From contig CAOJEC010000002.1 of NCBI GenBank assembly GCA_948433885.1, positions 8,976 to 72,975 on the forward strand: DNA of 64,000 bases, given 5' to 3'. Each line of letters begins with the position of its first letter. Position 1 is the first letter of the stretch. Shown one piece after another: positions 33,325 to 54,992 of this stretch. The notes beneath the pieces were generated by a model that saw only the letters and a program-made list of their open reading frames with translations, searched no databases and was not told where the DNA came from. Origin of the DNA: an uncultured bacterium (lineage in GTDB: Bacteria; Bacillota_I; Bacilli_A; RF39; UBA660). The position numbers were made by a program, and so were the translations under genes.

Positions 33325-34731
33325 ATGGCTGAAGAGAACAATTTAGTTTGGGAAAATTTTATTGGTTTACTTAAAAATCGCATCTCTACTGTCTCGATCA
33401 ACTCCTGGTTTAAATACTGCAAAATTTACAAAATAGACGATGCCGTCCAAGACAACAAATCTATCAAAGTTGTCACGATCATGACGAGCTCACAATATAT
33501 AAAGGATGCTCTCATAAAAAGATACTTAGAAACTATCGAAGAATTGATGGAATCGATTTTAGGAAAAAATTGTAATATCGAATTCGTACTCGAAGAAGAG
33601 CTTAATCAAGAACGAATTGAAGAACAAAAAGAATCGCCACCTATCGAACCGACTACAGTTGTGGAAAAACCGGTCAGTTATCAACAAAATTTTGAAACGA
33701 ATCTTTCACCAAAATACACTTTTGAAAATTTCATTGTTGGAGAAAATTCAAATCGTCTAGCATACGAAGGAGCGAGACATGTAGCTGAACAACCTGGAAA
33801 ATTGTTCAATCCATTTTTTATTCATGGTAAAAGTGGTCTCGGTAAGACCCACCTCATGCATGCCATTGGAAATTACATTACAGCTCATTCCAACAAGAAA
33901 GTTTTATATGTTACAAGTGAAAGATTTAAGTCGGATTTTACTACGATTAATATGAATAAAGATTCCAAAAGTATCCAAATGTTCAAAGAAAAATATAGAG
34001 GAATAGATGTTCTGATGATCGACGATATTCAATTTTTAGAAAAGGCTGAAAAGACTCAACAGGAATTCTTCCATACTTTTAATACACTTTATGATATGAA
34101 TAAACAGATCATCATCACATCTGATCGTAGTCCAAATGACTTGAAGTTACTAGAAGAAAGATTGATAACGCGTTTCAGTTGGGGACTGACAGTAAATATA
34201 TATCCACCGGATATCGATTTGAAAAAAAGAATCGTCAAAAATAAGATGGCTGGTCATGATGTAGCCAATTTAGTAGACGATGAAGTTGTCGAATTTATTG
34301 CTAACAACTGCGAAAATGATGTTAGACATATCGAGGGAACCGTCACAAGACTTTATGCATATGCAGCCATGATGAGCCCACATAAAATAGACTTAGAATT
34401 TGCAAACGAAGCATTGAGAGACTATTTAAAAAGTTCAGTTTACATGGATTCAAATATCGCAAAAATACAAAAAGCAGTCGCGGATTATTATAAGATAACA
34501 GTCGAAGACCTGAAGAGTAAAAAAAGAACTGCCAATATCAACTATCCACGACAAATTGCAATTTATCTATGTAGAAATTACACTGACGAATCTTTTCCGA
34601 AGATCGGACTTGAGTTCGGTAATCGCGATCATTCGACAATTATGTATGCATGTGATAAAATTGAAGCAGATCTCAAAATAAACAATCAGCTGAAAGAGAT
34701 AATTAGAGAGATCAAAAATAATATTGGGTAA
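33325..34731 (+). CDS. dnaA: Chromosomal replication initiator DnaA
   Basis: AAA+ Walker A (GKSGLGKTHL) and the domain IV motif (YLCRNYTDESFPKIGLEFGNRDHSTIMYA). The start at M11 follows GGTGAGG. Confidence 0.95.
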   Translation: MAEENNLVWENFIGLLKNRISTVSINSWFKYCKIYKIDDAVQDNKSIKVVTIMTSSQYIKDALIKRYLETIEELMESILGKNCNIEFVLEEELNQERIEEQKESPPIEPTTVVEKPVSYQQNFETNLSPKYTFENFIVGENSNRLAYEGARHVAEQPGKLFNPFFIHGKSGLGKTHLMHAIGNYITAHSNKKVLYVTSERFKSDFTTINMNKDSKSIQMFKEKYRGIDVLMIDDIQFLEKAEKTQQEFFHTFNTLYDMNKQIIITSDRSPNDLKLLEERLITRFSWGLTVNIYPPDIDLKKRIVKNKMAGHDVANLVDDEVVEFIANNCENDVRHIEGTVTRLYAYAAMMSPHKIDLEFANEALRDYLKSSVYMDSNIAKIQKAVADYYKITVEDLKSKKRTANINYPRQIAIYLCRNYTDESFPKIGLEFGNRDHSTIMYACDKIEADLKINNQLKEIIREIKNNIG

Positions 34732-34750: not shown

Positions 34751-34862
34751 TTTTCCACAAGTTTTCTACAGGGTTTAAATTCAATTAAATGTGGACAAAA
34801 GACCACTTTTCCACAAATTCCACAAAACATATAAATAATAATAAATATATAATAAATAAGAA
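34751..34862. promoter_or_regulatory. oriC part 2: DnaA boxes plus an AT-rich unwinding region between dnaA and dnaN
   Basis: TTTTCCACA at 34751-34759 and 34807-34815, TGTGGACAA at 34790-34798 and AATTCCACA at 34816-34824. These are followed by catataaataataataaatatataataaataag, which is nearly 100% AT and contains TAATAATAA. Confidence 0.7.
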
Positions 34863-39771: not shown

Positions 39772-42387
39772 ATGGAAGAAGAAAATAAAGAAAATTTACA
39801 AGAAAATATTCAAACCAATGAAGACGAGCAACTCGTCATCGATCGCACCCCTACAAGAGATAAAATAGATCACAATGATATTGTCGATGAAATCGAGAAT
39901 TCATTTATCAAATACTCTCTAAGTGTCATCACAGCGCGTGCGTTGCCAGACCTTCGAGATGGATTGAAACCAGTTCATAGAAGAATACTTTACTCTATGT
40001 ATGATTCGGGATACACACCAGATAAGCCACATAAAAAATGTGCCCGTATTGTCGGTGACGTCATCGGTAAATACCACCCTCATGGCGATTCATCGATTTA
40101 CGACGCCATGGTTCGTATGGCTCAAGATTTCAGTCTACGTTATATGTTAGTAGACGGTCACGGAAACTTCGGTAATATAAATGGAGATAGTCCCGCAGCT
40201 TATCGTTATACGGAATCTAGAATGGCAAAGATATCTCTCGAAATGCTTCGTGATATAAACAAAAATACTGTCGATTTCGAGGATAATTTCGACGGTCTAG
40301 AGCAAGAACCTAAAGTTCTACCATCTAGATTTCCAAATATCTTAGTTAATGGTACGACAGGTATTGCAGTCGGTATGGCAACCAACATTCCACCACACAA
40401 CTTAGGAGAAGTAATAGACGGATGTATTGCTTATATCGACAACCCTGAAATAGATACGATGGGATTGATGGAATATATTAAAGGACCAGATTTTCCTACA
40501 GGAGCGATAATTCTTGGAAACAGTGGAATACGTAAAGCATACGAAACAGGACGAGGAAGTATAACGATCCGAAGTAATGCTATTATCGAAGAAAAACACG
40601 GTAAAACGTACATCGTTATAGATGAAGTACCTTATGGACTCAATACGAACTCTCTTAAAGAAAAAGTTGCAAATTTAGTACATAATAAAGTCCTAGATGG
40701 AATATCGGATTATCATACAGACTTAAAAAATGGATTGAAAATAACTATCACGCTCAAAAGAGATGCAAATCCTCAAGTCGTATTGAATAATTTGTATAAA
40801 CATACTGAATTTCAAACTACATACGGTATCCTGTTCATAATGTTGGATATGGGTGTACCAAAAACCTTGGGATTAAAAGAAATAATTAGCAAATATATCG
40901 ATCACCAACGAGAAGTTATCATCAGAAGAACGCGATTTGAACTAGAAAAAGCAGAAAAACGTGTTCACATATTGGAAGGTTATAAGATCGCCCTAGACAA
41001 TATCGATGAAGTGATCAAAATAATTAAAGAAGCTGAAAGCGATTCAAATGCAAAAGAAAAATTGATAAAGCGATTTGGATTTACTGAAATTCAAGCGGAT
41101 AGCATCTTGGAATTGAAGTTACGTCGTTTGACAGGATTAGAAAGAGCAAAAATCGAAGAAGAATTGAAAAACTTACTAGCTCTTATCGAAGAATTGAAGA
41201 GCATTCTAGCTTCAGAACAAAAAGTTAATGACATAATTAAAAAAGAATTAACTGAAATAAAAGATAAATACGCAGATGAAAGACGTACTAAGATAGATAT
41301 GACTGCAATCGATTTTATTGAGGATGAATCATTGATACCTGAAGAAAATAGTATGATTACTCTAACAGAAAAGGGATACATCAAGAGACTTGCAGCAGAC
41401 ACTTATAAGACACAAAATCGTGGTGGTGTTGGCGTAAAGGGTATAAGTACAAATGAGGAAGATAATGTAAAATTGATGGTCAATGTATCTACACATGACT
41501 ATATACTTTTCTTTACAAATAAAGGTAAAGTATACCGTATCAAGGGATACGAAATACCAGAGTTCAATAGACAATCGAAAGGCTTGCCGATTATCAATCT
41601 TTTACATATAGAAAAAGACGAAGCAATAAGCTCTATAATAAAAATTGGTAAAGATGAACCAGAACTAAAATACCTGTTATTTGCGACTAAAAAAGGCGTA
41701 GTCAAACGTACGGCCATCGAAGACTTTGAAAATATCAGACAAACCGGTAAGATGAGTATTACTTTAAAAGATGATGATGAACTAATAGCAGTTAAAAAAA
41801 CAACTGGCGAAAACAAAGTTTTACTAGGAAGCACGAACGGACGTATGGTTTTGTTTGATGAATCTGAAATTAGAGTTATGGGTAGAACGGCATCAGGAGT
41901 ACGAGGAATCAATATGCCTGATGGAGAATGTATATGCGCTGACGTTTGTGATATGGACACTAATTTATTGATCGTCACCAAAAAGGGTTACGGAAAACGT
42001 ACATTTGTACAGGAGTTTAGAGAAACACGTCGTGGAAGTAAAGGAGTAAAAGCTCTAAATATAACTGAAAAAAATGGTGGTATAGCTTCATTCAACATTA
42101 TCGACGACGAAAAAGATATTGTTATAATTACGGATTCCGGAATGGTAATCAGATTAGATTCTACGACAATATCTCAACTTGGACGCAACGCCCAAGGTGT
42201 AAGACTGATTAATCTGAAAGATAATCAAATTGTCTCTTCAATTTCTATTGTGGAAAAAATAATGGAGGAAACAGGAAACAAAGAAAATTTAACTGTGGAC
42301 AACTCAATAACTGATAATATTGAAATTGCTGTGGAAAACTCTGAAAAAGAAATTCAAGAAAGTGCTGTGGAAAACGAACAAGAATAA
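39772..42387 (+). CDS. gyrA: DNA gyrase subunit A
   Basis: QRDR-type motif ([17 protein letters not shown]), the catalytic Tyr region (AAYRYTESR) and a beta-pinwheel C-terminal domain. Acidic C-terminal tail. Confidence 0.97.
42249..42374 (+). promoter_or_regulatory. Four co-oriented DnaA-box-like 9-mers inside the last 140 bp of gyrA
   Basis: TGTGGAAAA at 42249-42257, 42330-42338 and 42366-42374. TGTGGACAA at 42294-42302. Confidence 0.5.
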
Positions 42388-42426
42388 AAAAAAATAGGTA
42401 TGAAAAACTCCCTATTCTTTTTTTAT

Positions 42427-42446
42427 ATTATTTCCCGGGAAATAAT
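42427..42446. promoter_or_regulatory. Noc-binding-site (NBS) palindrome 1
   Basis: ATTATTTCCCGGGAAATAAT is a perfect 20-bp palindrome containing the B. subtilis NBS consensus ATTTCCCGGGAAAT. Confidence 0.75.
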
Positions 42447-42464
42447 GGTTGAATCTACCTGCGG

Positions 42465-42504
42465 AAATTTACAATCTTTTGTATATACGAAAGATTGTAA
42501 ATTT
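42465..42504. repeat. Perfect 15-bp inverted repeat with a 10-nt loop
   Basis: AAATTTACAATCTTT - tgtatatacg - AAAGATTGTAAATTT. Confidence 0.8.
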
Positions 42505-42526
42505 AGTACTTGTAAAGAAAATTGGA

Positions 42527-42544
42527 ATGTTACATGTGAAACAT
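42527..42544. promoter_or_regulatory. Degenerate parS-like site within a 36-bp palindrome (42518-42553)
   Basis: ATGTTaCAtGTGaAACAT has 3 mismatches to the local perfect copies. It is flanked by 14-bp arms AAAATTGGAATGTT / AACATTCCAATTTT. Confidence 0.45.
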
Positions 42545-42686
42545 TCCAATTTTAAATTATCATTTAAATATCACCTAATATAAGATACTTCCAGGAAATA
42601 TTATAATAAGAAAATAAAGTAAAAAGTATATATGATCTTTAAAGTTTAAATAACTATAAATACAGATTTAATATTTATATGCATTT

Positions 42687-42704
42687 ATGTTCCACGTGAA
42701 ACAT
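42687..42704. promoter_or_regulatory. parS site a
   Basis: The core TGTTCCACGTGAAACA is identical to the B. subtilis parS consensus. An extra half-site GTGGAACA lies at 42710-42717. Confidence 0.8.
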
Positions 42705-42742
42705 CACAAGTGGAACAAAAAATGATATTTTTAATATTGTAA

Positions 42743-42760
42743 TTATTTCCCGGGAAATAA
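42743..42760. promoter_or_regulatory. NBS palindrome 2
   Basis: TTATTTCCCGGGAAATAA is a perfect 18-bp palindrome. Confidence 0.75.
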
Positions 42761-42785
42761 AAATATAGGTATTTTTCCACAGCAC

Positions 42786-42803
42786 ATGTTCCACGTGGAA
42801 CAT
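42786..42803. promoter_or_regulatory. parS site b
   Basis: ATGTTCCACGTGGAACAT is a perfect 18-bp palindrome. TTTTCCACA lies just upstream at 42773-42781. Confidence 0.8.
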
Positions 42804-42958
42804 TAGATTTTGACATAGTAAAGTTTAGATATAATTAGTCTAAGTAATATTTTATTTAAAATCAAATTCTCAGTTGTATTAAAAATAATTATAAATTTAT
42901 TTTAATACTATTAAGAGTTAAATTGGTTGTACTCTTCTTACTACTTTTCCACAACTAG

Positions 42959-42976
42959 ATGTTCCACGTGGAACAT
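42959..42976. promoter_or_regulatory. parS site c
   Basis: ATGTTCCACGTGGAACAT is perfect. TTTTCCACA lies at 42945-42953. Confidence 0.8.
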
Positions 42977-43140
42977 GATAGTATTAAGTCAACGCTTTGT
43001 TTTTTATTAGCTCATTTCTAGAAAATGCAGCACAAAACCGAATTACTAAGCATCTAGTTAACATTGGTTAAATTAATATAAAATCTTAATGATCATATTG
43101 ATAGTTGAAAATGTTTTTTATAATATTCTTTCCACAACAA

Positions 43141-43160
43141 AATGTTCCACGTGGAACATT
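43141..43160. promoter_or_regulatory. parS site d
   Basis: AATGTTCCACGTGGAACATT is a perfect 20-bp palindrome. CTTTCCACA lies at 43128-43136. Confidence 0.8.
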
Positions 43161-43220
43161 GTATAATACTTGGTAATAAAATTTATAAAACACTTGAATA
43201 TACGTACATTTGTATGCAAC

Positions 43221-43236
43221 TATTTCCCGGGAAATA
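43221..43236. promoter_or_regulatory. NBS palindrome 3
   Basis: TATTTCCCGGGAAATA is a perfect 16-bp palindrome, 8 nt upstream of the ffs -35 element. Confidence 0.75.
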
Positions 43237-43243
43237 ATCCTAC

Positions 43244-43272
43244 TTGAATTTTATAATTTAATATGATAAAAT
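43244..43272 (+). promoter_or_regulatory. Putative promoter of the SRP RNA
   Basis: TTGAAT (43244-43249), a 17-nt spacer, then TAAAAT (43267-43272). This places the start near G43278/79. Confidence 0.5.
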
Positions 43273-43277
43273 TTAAA

Positions 43278-43352
43278 GGCACAACGAACTATTGTCGAAC
43301 CTGGTCAGGATTGGAAAATAGCAGCCATAAGATGAGAATTCGTGTGTGCTTT
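43278..43352 (+). ncRNA. ffs: Small (4.5S-type) signal recognition particle RNA
   Basis: cctGGTCAGGattGGAAaatAGCAGCCataagatgagaattcgtgtgtgc parallels E. coli 4.5S ccaGGUCAGGuccGGAAggaAGCAGCCaaggcagaugacgcgugugcc. It has a GGAA tetraloop, and the closing stem GCACA(A)CGAA / TTCGTGTGTGC has one bulge. The ends are approximate. Confidence 0.8.
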
Positions 43353-43367
43353 TATTTTGGAGGAATT

Positions 43368-43787
43368 ATGGAAAAATATATTTTGGATCGACTCTTCGAA
43401 TTGGCAAATAAATCATTAGAGGAAAATGAGTTTCCAGTAAGTGCAATTGTTTATGACCAAACAGGAATATTAGGTGAAGGTTATAATATAAGGAATTCTA
43501 CCAATAAAACTACCGATCATGCAGAAATAATAGCAATAGAAAATGCTAATAAAAATGTAAAAAATTGGAATTTAGAGAACAAATGTATGGTAGTAACTTT
43601 AGAGCCTTGTGAAATGTGCAAAAGTGTCATTAAAGAAGCACGTCTATCCGAAGTTTACTTTCTCATACCGAGATATAAGTACAAAAAACAATATAAAAAT
43701 ACTACAATAAAACATCTTCCCTTACAGGATGAAAGATTAACATCATATAATCAAAATATAACGACCTTTTTTTCAAATAAACGGTAG
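43368..43787 (+). CDS. tadA: tRNA-specific adenosine deaminase
   Basis: CDA-fold motifs HAE (TTDHAEIIAI) and PCxxC (LEPCEMCKSV). The ATG at 43368 follows GGAGG. The track's upstream extension overlaps the SRP RNA. Confidence 0.9.
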   Translation: MEKYILDRLFELANKSLEENEFPVSAIVYDQTGILGEGYNIRNSTNKTTDHAEIIAIENANKNVKNWNLENKCMVVTLEPCEMCKSVIKEARLSEVYFLIPRYKYKKQYKNTTIKHLPLQDERLTSYNQNITTFFSNKR

Positions 43788-54972: not shown

Positions 54973-54992
54973 ATTATTTCCCGGGAAATAAT
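54973..54992. promoter_or_regulatory. NBS palindrome 5
   Basis: ATTATTTCCCGGGAAATAAT is a perfect 20-bp palindrome identical to copy 1. Confidence 0.75.

Follow-up and report, generated by a model that had tools for sequence, protein, structure and literature searches.

Predicted DnaA boxes among parS and Noc-type sites downstream of gyrA in an uncultured RF39-type gut bacterium

The window analysed here is a stretch of 64,000 nt (contig C2:8976-72975; CAOJEC010000002.1) from the genome of an uncultured RF39-type gut bacterium, an assembly of 1.41 Mb with 35% G+C in 62 contigs. Its gene order is dnaA, dnaN, a small gene, recF, gyrB and gyrA (39772-42387), followed by a gene-free 0.9 kb and the signal recognition particle (SRP) RNA gene. 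The subject of this report is the end of gyrA together with the gene-free interval, where 9-bp words resembling DnaA boxes are interspersed with parS sites and with palindromes of the Noc-binding type. The same stretch has been recovered in many mouse-gut metagenomes (at least 10 studies), and the relatives of its GyrA are uncultured RF39-type Bacilli (‘Candidatus Coprovivens’, ‘Ventrenecus’, CAG:710 and CAG:433). Both the GC and the AT skew flip sharply at about 33.0–33.9 kb, at dnaA; the origin is therefore at dnaA, and the stretch with DnaA boxes and parS sites lies 8 kb into the right replichore, close to the origin and outside oriC.

The features of the interval are as follows, with the boxes as predicted and the dnaA-dnaN segment given first for reference. 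Palindromic sites are given no strand; NBS stands for Noc-binding site.

34751-34824, plus strand: reference dnaA-dnaN oriC segment, with TTTTCCACA at 34751, an inverted pair TGTGGACAA-N8-TTTTCCACA at 34790-34815, AATTCCACA, and an AT-rich run to the dnaN start
39772-42387, plus strand: gyrA, 871 aa, from the ORF list, GyrA relatives and the tail translation; four boxes in its final 140 bp, which encode an acidic tail
42249-42257, minus strand: DnaA box TTTTCCACA (TGTGGAAAA on the plus strand), in codons I-V-E-K, where the conserved GyrA core ends
42294-42302, minus strand: DnaA-box variant TTGTCCACA (TGTGGACAA on the plus strand), in codons T-V-D-N
42330-42338, minus strand: DnaA box TTTTCCACA (TGTGGAAAA on the plus strand), in codons A-V-E-N, first copy of a 36-bp tandem duplication
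42366-42374, minus strand: DnaA box TTTTCCACA (TGTGGAAAA on the plus strand), in codons A-V-E-N, second copy of the duplication
42430-42443: NBS 1, palindrome ATTTCCCGGGAAAT
42688-42703: parS a, TGTTCCACGTGAAACA, one mismatch from the perfect palindrome
42710-42717, minus strand: half-site GTGGAACA, an exact parS half, located 6 bp past parS a; altered in a divergent strain contig
42745-42758: NBS 2, 14 bp before box b
42773-42781, plus strand: DnaA box b, TTTTCCACA, 5 bp before parS b
42787-42802: parS b, perfect, TGTTCCACGTGGAACA
42945-42953, plus strand: DnaA box c, TTTTCCACA, 6 bp before parS c
42960-42975: parS c, perfect
43128-43136, plus strand: DnaA-box variant d, CTTTCCACA, 6 bp before parS d
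43143-43158: parS d, perfect
43222-43235: NBS 3
43271-43360, plus strand: SRP RNA gene (ffs; Rfam RF00169, 55.7 bits), the right boundary of the gene-free array

Much of this arrangement had been described in an earlier note made from the sequence alone, and all of its motifs were found where it had put them, including the three copies of TGTGGAAAA and the one of TGTGGACAA that are co-oriented in the last 140 bp of gyrA. Some details needed correction. The boxes had been placed 4–6 bp from parS, where the actual gaps are 5, 6 and 6 bp for b, c and d, and the word beside parS a had been placed 5 bp downstream, where GTGGAACA actually follows after 6 bp. The pairing was described as one-to-one, but it holds for three of the four parS sites (b, c and d), each with a box 5–6 bp away, which puts boxes within the parS cluster in the Caulobacter-type arrangement. 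Site a carries a parS-type half-site. As a DnaA box GTGGAACA was rejected, having 2–3 mismatches that include a G at position 2, and the site a word TGTTCCACT likewise fails to match the DnaA-box consensus. All four boxes in the gyrA tail share one orientation, and none was found in the first 2.5 kb of the gene.

The remaining words do fit the consensus. When up to one mismatch is allowed, the five copies of TTTTCCACA and the single TTGTCCACA are one mismatch from TTATNCACA, and CTTTCCACA is one mismatch from TT(A/T)TNCACA. The first two of these words recur in this organism's own oriC, between dnaA and dnaN: TTTTCCACA is found there twice (34751 and 34807), a reuse that the earlier note had pointed out, and TTGTCCACA once (34790). 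The window has 8 copies of TTTTCCACA, where 0.9 would be expected. A genome-wide count, which had been proposed as a check for local enrichment, bears it out: of 36 copies in 1.41 Mb, five fall within these 705 bp. Strict boxes, defined as TT[A/T/G]TCCACA, reach 6 per kb here, compared with a genome mean of 0.048 and with 3 and 4 per kb in the two halves of oriC, making this the densest cluster of the assembly.

Proteins that could act at these sites are encoded in the genome; dnaA, parA, parB and a noc-like gene are all present. DnaA (478 aa) is canonical, with 353 bits to B. subtilis DnaA (8btg), and has a conserved DNA-binding domain IV. In an alignment to 1J1V this domain (window 34432-34728) has S for the first T of the E. 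coli ‘DHTT’ and Y for the H of ‘LHA’; the Y is also present in M. tuberculosis DnaA (chain 3pvp). The positions that we take, from the same alignment, to be E. coli R399, P423, D433 and H434 are kept, while what are presumably the base-contacting T435 and H439 are changed from T to S and from H to Y, substitutions regarded as conservative. At position 3 of the box, A, T and G are all used in this organism. The four parS sites conform to the chromosomal 16-bp palindrome TGTTNCACGTGNAACA, lie near oriC, and are the only parS sites of the genome at up to one mismatch. ParA (267 aa) and ParB (301 aa) are encoded in an operon on contig C24 (C24:16189-17887), which is not adjacent to dnaA in the assembly; a Noc-like ParB paralogue is encoded in the window. 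Perfect ATTTCCCGGGAAAT palindromes are found at window positions 42430, 42745, 43222, 49783 and 54976 (ending at 54989). These are all five of the assembly, and they lie within 12.6 kb.

Boxes beside parS in relatives and strains

For comparison, 80 gyrA loci of relatives were fetched, giving flank statistics over 81 loci and 679 parS flanks. Arrays of parS directly 3' of gyrA are nearly universal in this set and are often interleaved with ATTTCCCGGGAAAT. In the closest relatives TTTTCCACA or the canonical TTATCCACA stands before each parS, at gaps of 0–6 bp; elsewhere the box is on the other side of parS or reversed. Boxes with up to one mismatch have a density of 5–13 per 1000 positions at gaps of 0–8 bp in the ‘toward’ orientation and of 11 per 1000 at gaps of 3–5 bp in the ‘away’ orientation, compared with about 1 per 1000 at more than 13 bp from parS. 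An unbiased 6-mer test ranked TCCACA first, with 16 loci near parS vs. 2.0 in control windows, followed by TTTTCC, CCACAA, ATCCAC, TATCCA and GGATAA.

A DnaA box and a parS half-site have a core in common, T[C/T]CAC, and 61 flank words were picked solely by this core. Position 1 is T; position 2 is T in 56 of them and G just once, at site a of this window; position 3 is A in 40 (A/T type); and position 9 holds A or T, the parS-type G being absent there. The commonest word is TTATCCACA. The G at position 2 and the G after CAC that would mark an additional ParB half-site are thus not what is seen, nor do the 61 words show any covariation with the adjacent parS half-site: where parS is TGTTTCAC, its neighbour is still TCCACA. 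With DnaA-box bases at these positions, the flank words therefore follow the DnaA-box consensus and not the parS half-site, and a half-site reading would survive at site a alone. The variant used beside parS also tends to follow that of the genome's own dnaA-dnaN region, in four of five genomes of the genus (T/T, T/T, A/A, A/A and one mixed).

The geometry is far less constant than the words. All four classes of side and orientation are present, in 13, 11, 9 and 5 loci, and the spacing between box and parS ranges from 0 to 12 bp between lineages. A strict composite search gave 6 of 151 genomes of the family, with 0 for a reversed-pattern control, and 0 in some 350 genomes from 30 other families of the class. 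Mapped on a GyrA tree, the state ‘at least two paired sites’ needs at least 9 gains or losses, 7 of which are imposed by well-supported branches; for the four geometries, 14 configuration changes are required. Boxes have evolved beside parS repeatedly, and within the clade of seven that includes the window (100% support) the order is uniformly box then parS. Overall, the association appears from this comparison to be recurrent but patchy. Conservation in relatives, a check proposed in the earlier note, holds for the clade of seven, with recurrence elsewhere, and fails in five members of the genus.

In some lineages the DnaA box is sandwiched between a Noc-type site and parS. Several lineages combine Noc site, DnaA box and parS into a single tight module, repeated 3–6 times in each (L012:6489-6532, L037:6625-6668, L053:6583-6630 and L004:6760-6817). 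Examples are NBS-4 bp-TTATCCACA-1 bp-parS in CAG:710 and box-0 bp-parS-19 bp-NBS in L004.

Comparisons within the array and between strains give a similar picture of conserved sites in changing surroundings. Units b, c and d have only a 31-nt box-plus-parS in common, which is 94% identical between c and d, and their flanks are unrelated. Strain variants in 42660-43270 number 31 (28 substitutions and 3 indels), all of them outside the boxes, parS and NBS; these elements make up 127 of the 611 bp, and the chance of the variants missing all of them is about 7e-4. In a contig of about 88% identity there are changes at 42772, 42783 and 42785, on either side of box b (42773-42781), which is intact. 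In other strains, about 90 additional bases separate two matches, each of which ends on parS c (window 42959-42976); their array therefore has one more parS unit.

Boxes written in the codons of the gyrA tail

Genome-wide, 10 of 267 V-E-(K/N) triplets (3.7%) are spelled TGTGGAAAA, compared with three of three in the gyrA tail. For V-D-(K/N) the spelling TGTGGACAA is found in 2 of 213, one of the two being in the gyrA tail. In the pairing clade, 12 of 15 tail V-E-(K/N) triplets are exact boxes, in tails that are otherwise not alignable; V-E-N is absent from the gyrA tails of genus members without box-parS pairing. Because GTG is the rarest Val codon in the genome (12.9%), and yet the tail triplets spell the box across the clade, the suggestion in the earlier note that these codons are partly constrained by the DNA motif is supported: the motif seems to shape the V-E-(K/N) codons of the tail, and with them the tail peptide.

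Weighing the alternatives

On balance, the 9-mers are probably genuine DnaA boxes kept by selection beside ParB loading sites, and the array is most likely a set of origin-proximal, predicted DnaA-binding sites in a parS and Noc-site centromere 8 kb from oriC. A DnaA-box cluster is supported because the words fit the consensus, match the oriC boxes, are most enriched beside parS and persist while their flanks diverge, and because the skews place the origin 8 kb away at dnaA. Of the two readings offered in the earlier note, the extra-oriC DnaA-box cluster fused to the centromere is thus upheld by the sequence, the comparative data and the skew, while the other, third half-sites for ParB, fares badly with the 61 flank words. 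The layout is common to relatives and suggests that the start of replication and chromosome segregation may be linked on the DNA itself.

Several observations weigh against this interpretation. The pairing is patchy, with at least two paired sites in only 26 of 67 assessable loci and none in five genomes of the same genus, and the strict composite is found in just ~4% of family genomes. At the orthologous I/V-V-E-K site an exact box is present in only four of the seven clade members, the others being one mismatch off. The tail boxes are labile within the species: the 36-bp in-frame tandem duplication at 42327-42362, which accounts for the second A-V-E-N unit, is missing from one strain contig, and in another strain a synonymous G>T at 42369 (GTG to GTT) breaks the fourth tail box. 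The 27 variant-free bp of the parS-side boxes are not significant by themselves (about 1.4 variants expected). TTTTCCAC is one base from a parS half-site, and the readings are therefore hard to separate within this genome alone. The boxes are also widely spaced, at intervals of 27–36 bp in the tail and of ~170 bp in the array. Stable binding in B. subtilis has been associated with four successive boxes for which A = (sum of affinities)/d exceeds 0.3 (PMC2533591). Here A is ~0.13 for the tail (four boxes of affinity 1, d ~31) and ~0.02 for the array, and stable DnaA occupancy or effective titration is doubtful because both values are below 0.3. The locus is therefore not to be filed as a DnaA-box cluster (DBC) of the B. 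subtilis type, a membership that was rejected on this density.

The words might be functionless passengers, a parS with a chance box-like neighbour or a decayed parS half having been amplified as the array grew, and the tail words reflecting a duplicated V-E-N peptide. Turnover of the array is indeed fast, with strains differing by one unit and with the 36-bp duplication in the tail; half-parS remnants exist, as at site a; and many relatives are without pairing. What makes this unlikely is that units b, c and d have kept box and parS together between unrelated flanks, that the association recurs at least nine times in four geometries, that the words converge on TTATCCACA and not on the parS half, and that a Val codon as rare as GTG is used in 12 of the 15 clade tail triplets.

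Some other lineage-specific protein could instead bind the TTWTCCACA-like words, as a dimer at 26-bp palindromes of the form TGTGGAWAA-N8-TTWTCCACA and in single units beside parS. Of 18 genomes of this genus, 11 have inverted pairs with a spacer of exactly 8 bp, compared with 0 of 22 others, and the pairs are found in the same subclade as the tail boxes and the parS pairing. Nevertheless, one such pair belongs to the dnaA-dnaN origin in two genomes (G000 and G508), the word is a textbook DnaA box, box-parS pairing is also found in other genera that have no N8 pairs at all, and a centre-to-centre spacing of 17 bp would be odd for a helix-turn-helix dimer, so we regard this as quite improbable.

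There is very little to recommend third ParB half-sites, which would add a ParB monomer or help clamp loading. The core of the parS half-site is TTCCAC, and site a has its exact half-site GTGGAACA at the same 6-bp distance, but the base composition of the flank words, the TCCACA retained beside TGTTTCAC, and the variable spacing and orientation all argue the other way. A working third oriC module, with DnaA assembling for unwinding or helicase loading, is similarly hard to credit: strict boxes outnumber those of either oriC half, the DNA is AT-rich and the box has parS on the side where, in dnaA-dnaN, it has the unwinding element, but the skews flip at dnaA (33.0–33.9 kb) and not at the array, the boxes are widely spaced with no adjacent box pair and AT-rich run like those in dnaA-dnaN, and the orientation is reversed in other lineages.

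A role for the boxes in promoters or as transcription factor sites was dropped, promoter-like sites in 42200-43420 numbering 9 where 9.2 are expected; none of the boxes overlaps the likely ffs promoter (43244-43272). Models with a set polarity, for instance a filament of DnaA extending over parS, or a roadblock that is always on the origin side, were set aside, all four geometry classes being found.

Known systems and a possible coupling of initiation to segregation

The closest known counterparts of the proposed DnaA boxes in a centromere appear to be the Caulobacter centromere with its bound DnaA and, in B. subtilis, the ywcI-vpr cluster next to parS. The DnaA of Caulobacter crescentus binds boxes within the parS centromere and makes segregation possible (Mera 2014, as described in PMC6399470). 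There as here, the ParB centromere contains boxes and is a few kb away from the origin, and in that account a role in both segregation and replication is proposed for the initiator. Caulobacter differs in having experimental proof, and the account reports no unit of one box per parS; the locus described here has one predicted box per parS (at three of four), boxes in a coding tail and interleaved Noc-type sites, which together are its distinctive features. Literature searches turned up no description of box-parS composites.

In B. subtilis, ywcI-vpr is one of eight stable DnaA-binding regions, lies beside parS and is bound by both DnaA and Spo0J (Ishikawa 2007, PMC2533591), and deletion of six DBCs outside oriC is synergistic with a spo0J deletion, acting through Soj and DnaA (Okumura 2012, PMC3245932). 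The B. subtilis DBCs are intergenic and have 4–8 boxes, 4–21 bp apart, with A above 0.3, unlike the boxes here, which are 27–170 bp apart and each tied to a parS or written in codons. E. coli datA, an origin-proximal region of ~1 kb, contains a few scattered DnaA boxes and reduces the potential for initiation once the fork has passed, through IHF-dependent hydrolysis of DnaA-ATP; it has no parS. The present locus resembles it in position, in size and in its few dispersed boxes, and differs in its parS sites; no IHF site or equivalent came to light here, though none was looked for.

Centromere and initiator sites also occur together at rctA/parS2-B of Vibrio cholerae chromosome II, where they overlap, so that partition protein and initiator influence each other (PMC3688505). 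There the initiator is RctB, not DnaA, and the interaction is by ParB2 spreading or competition at a single locus of a plasmid-like replicon. Noc of Staphylococcus aureus restrains DnaA-dependent initiation (Pang 2017, PMC5540599), a genetic link between a ParB-family protein and DnaA in the Bacilli to which the Noc-type sites interleaved with boxes here form a possible parallel; the abstract of that paper mentions no juxtaposition of NBS and DnaA boxes on DNA.

For DnaA boxes selected beside ParB loading sites, the most likely function is coupling in cis of DnaA with the ParB/Soj system. Each box would be occupied by domain IV of DnaA, which would keep the initiator within the ParB partition complex; the gyrA tail would contribute three or four boxes by way of its T-GTG-GAA-AA codons (x-Val-Glu-Lys/Asn), and three more would lie beside parS b, c and d. 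One form this could take is a DnaA sink or regulatory site, doubled seconds after initiation, like the B. subtilis DBCs or E. coli datA; another is that DnaA feeds into the working of the centromere, as in Caulobacter. Since spacing, side and orientation vary between lineages, proximity seems to matter and not a fixed protein-protein geometry, and we therefore prefer a model in which DnaA co-localises with the ParB-Soj machinery to one that needs a stereospecific complex.

A more specific version can be put forward tentatively, and we would not bet on it as it stands: the boxes may be hard-wired to single ParB loading sites, with DnaA gating or polarising the loading and sliding of ParB (and Noc) CTP clamps, or with ParB-activated Soj acting on DnaA in cis. 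This would make the array a built-in coupler of initiation and segregation that evolved repeatedly and, in this clade, recruited codons of the gyrA tail. Coordination of the two processes is so far understood only from a few models, namely B. subtilis with Soj-DnaA, Caulobacter with DnaA at its centromere and Vibrio with ParB2-RctB. If the interpretation is right, the composite of one box per parS would be a compact, synthesisable cis-element for studying whether DnaA, ParB and Noc-like clamps assist, block or displace one another on DNA, and the gyrA tail would clearly exemplify how a regulatory motif in DNA can shape the tail sequence of an essential enzyme. Origin and centromere biology would also be extended to the RF39-type gut bacteria, a group without a cultured model.

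Some further box-like sequences of this genome may be recorded. An extended form of the box, TTTTCCACAGCA(C), is common to box b and two of the tail boxes; it is not found in oriC or in relatives and was judged a coincidence. Inverted pairs TGTGGAWAA-N8-TTWTCCACA number eight or nine in the genome, with a spacer of exactly 8 bp (window 34790-34815; C1:8773, C1:41938, C1:75425, C10:6344, C24:21318, C25:10605, C52:4767 and C56:3501). One is in the dnaA-dnaN origin, and several are within genes, with counterparts at orthologous places in relatives. The pair at C24:21318-21343 is inside a 442-aa ORF that starts 3.4 kb upstream of parA-parB. A further small cluster of 4–5 boxes, including an N8 pair, is intergenic at C10:6239-6369, upstream of a minus-strand gene of 614 aa.

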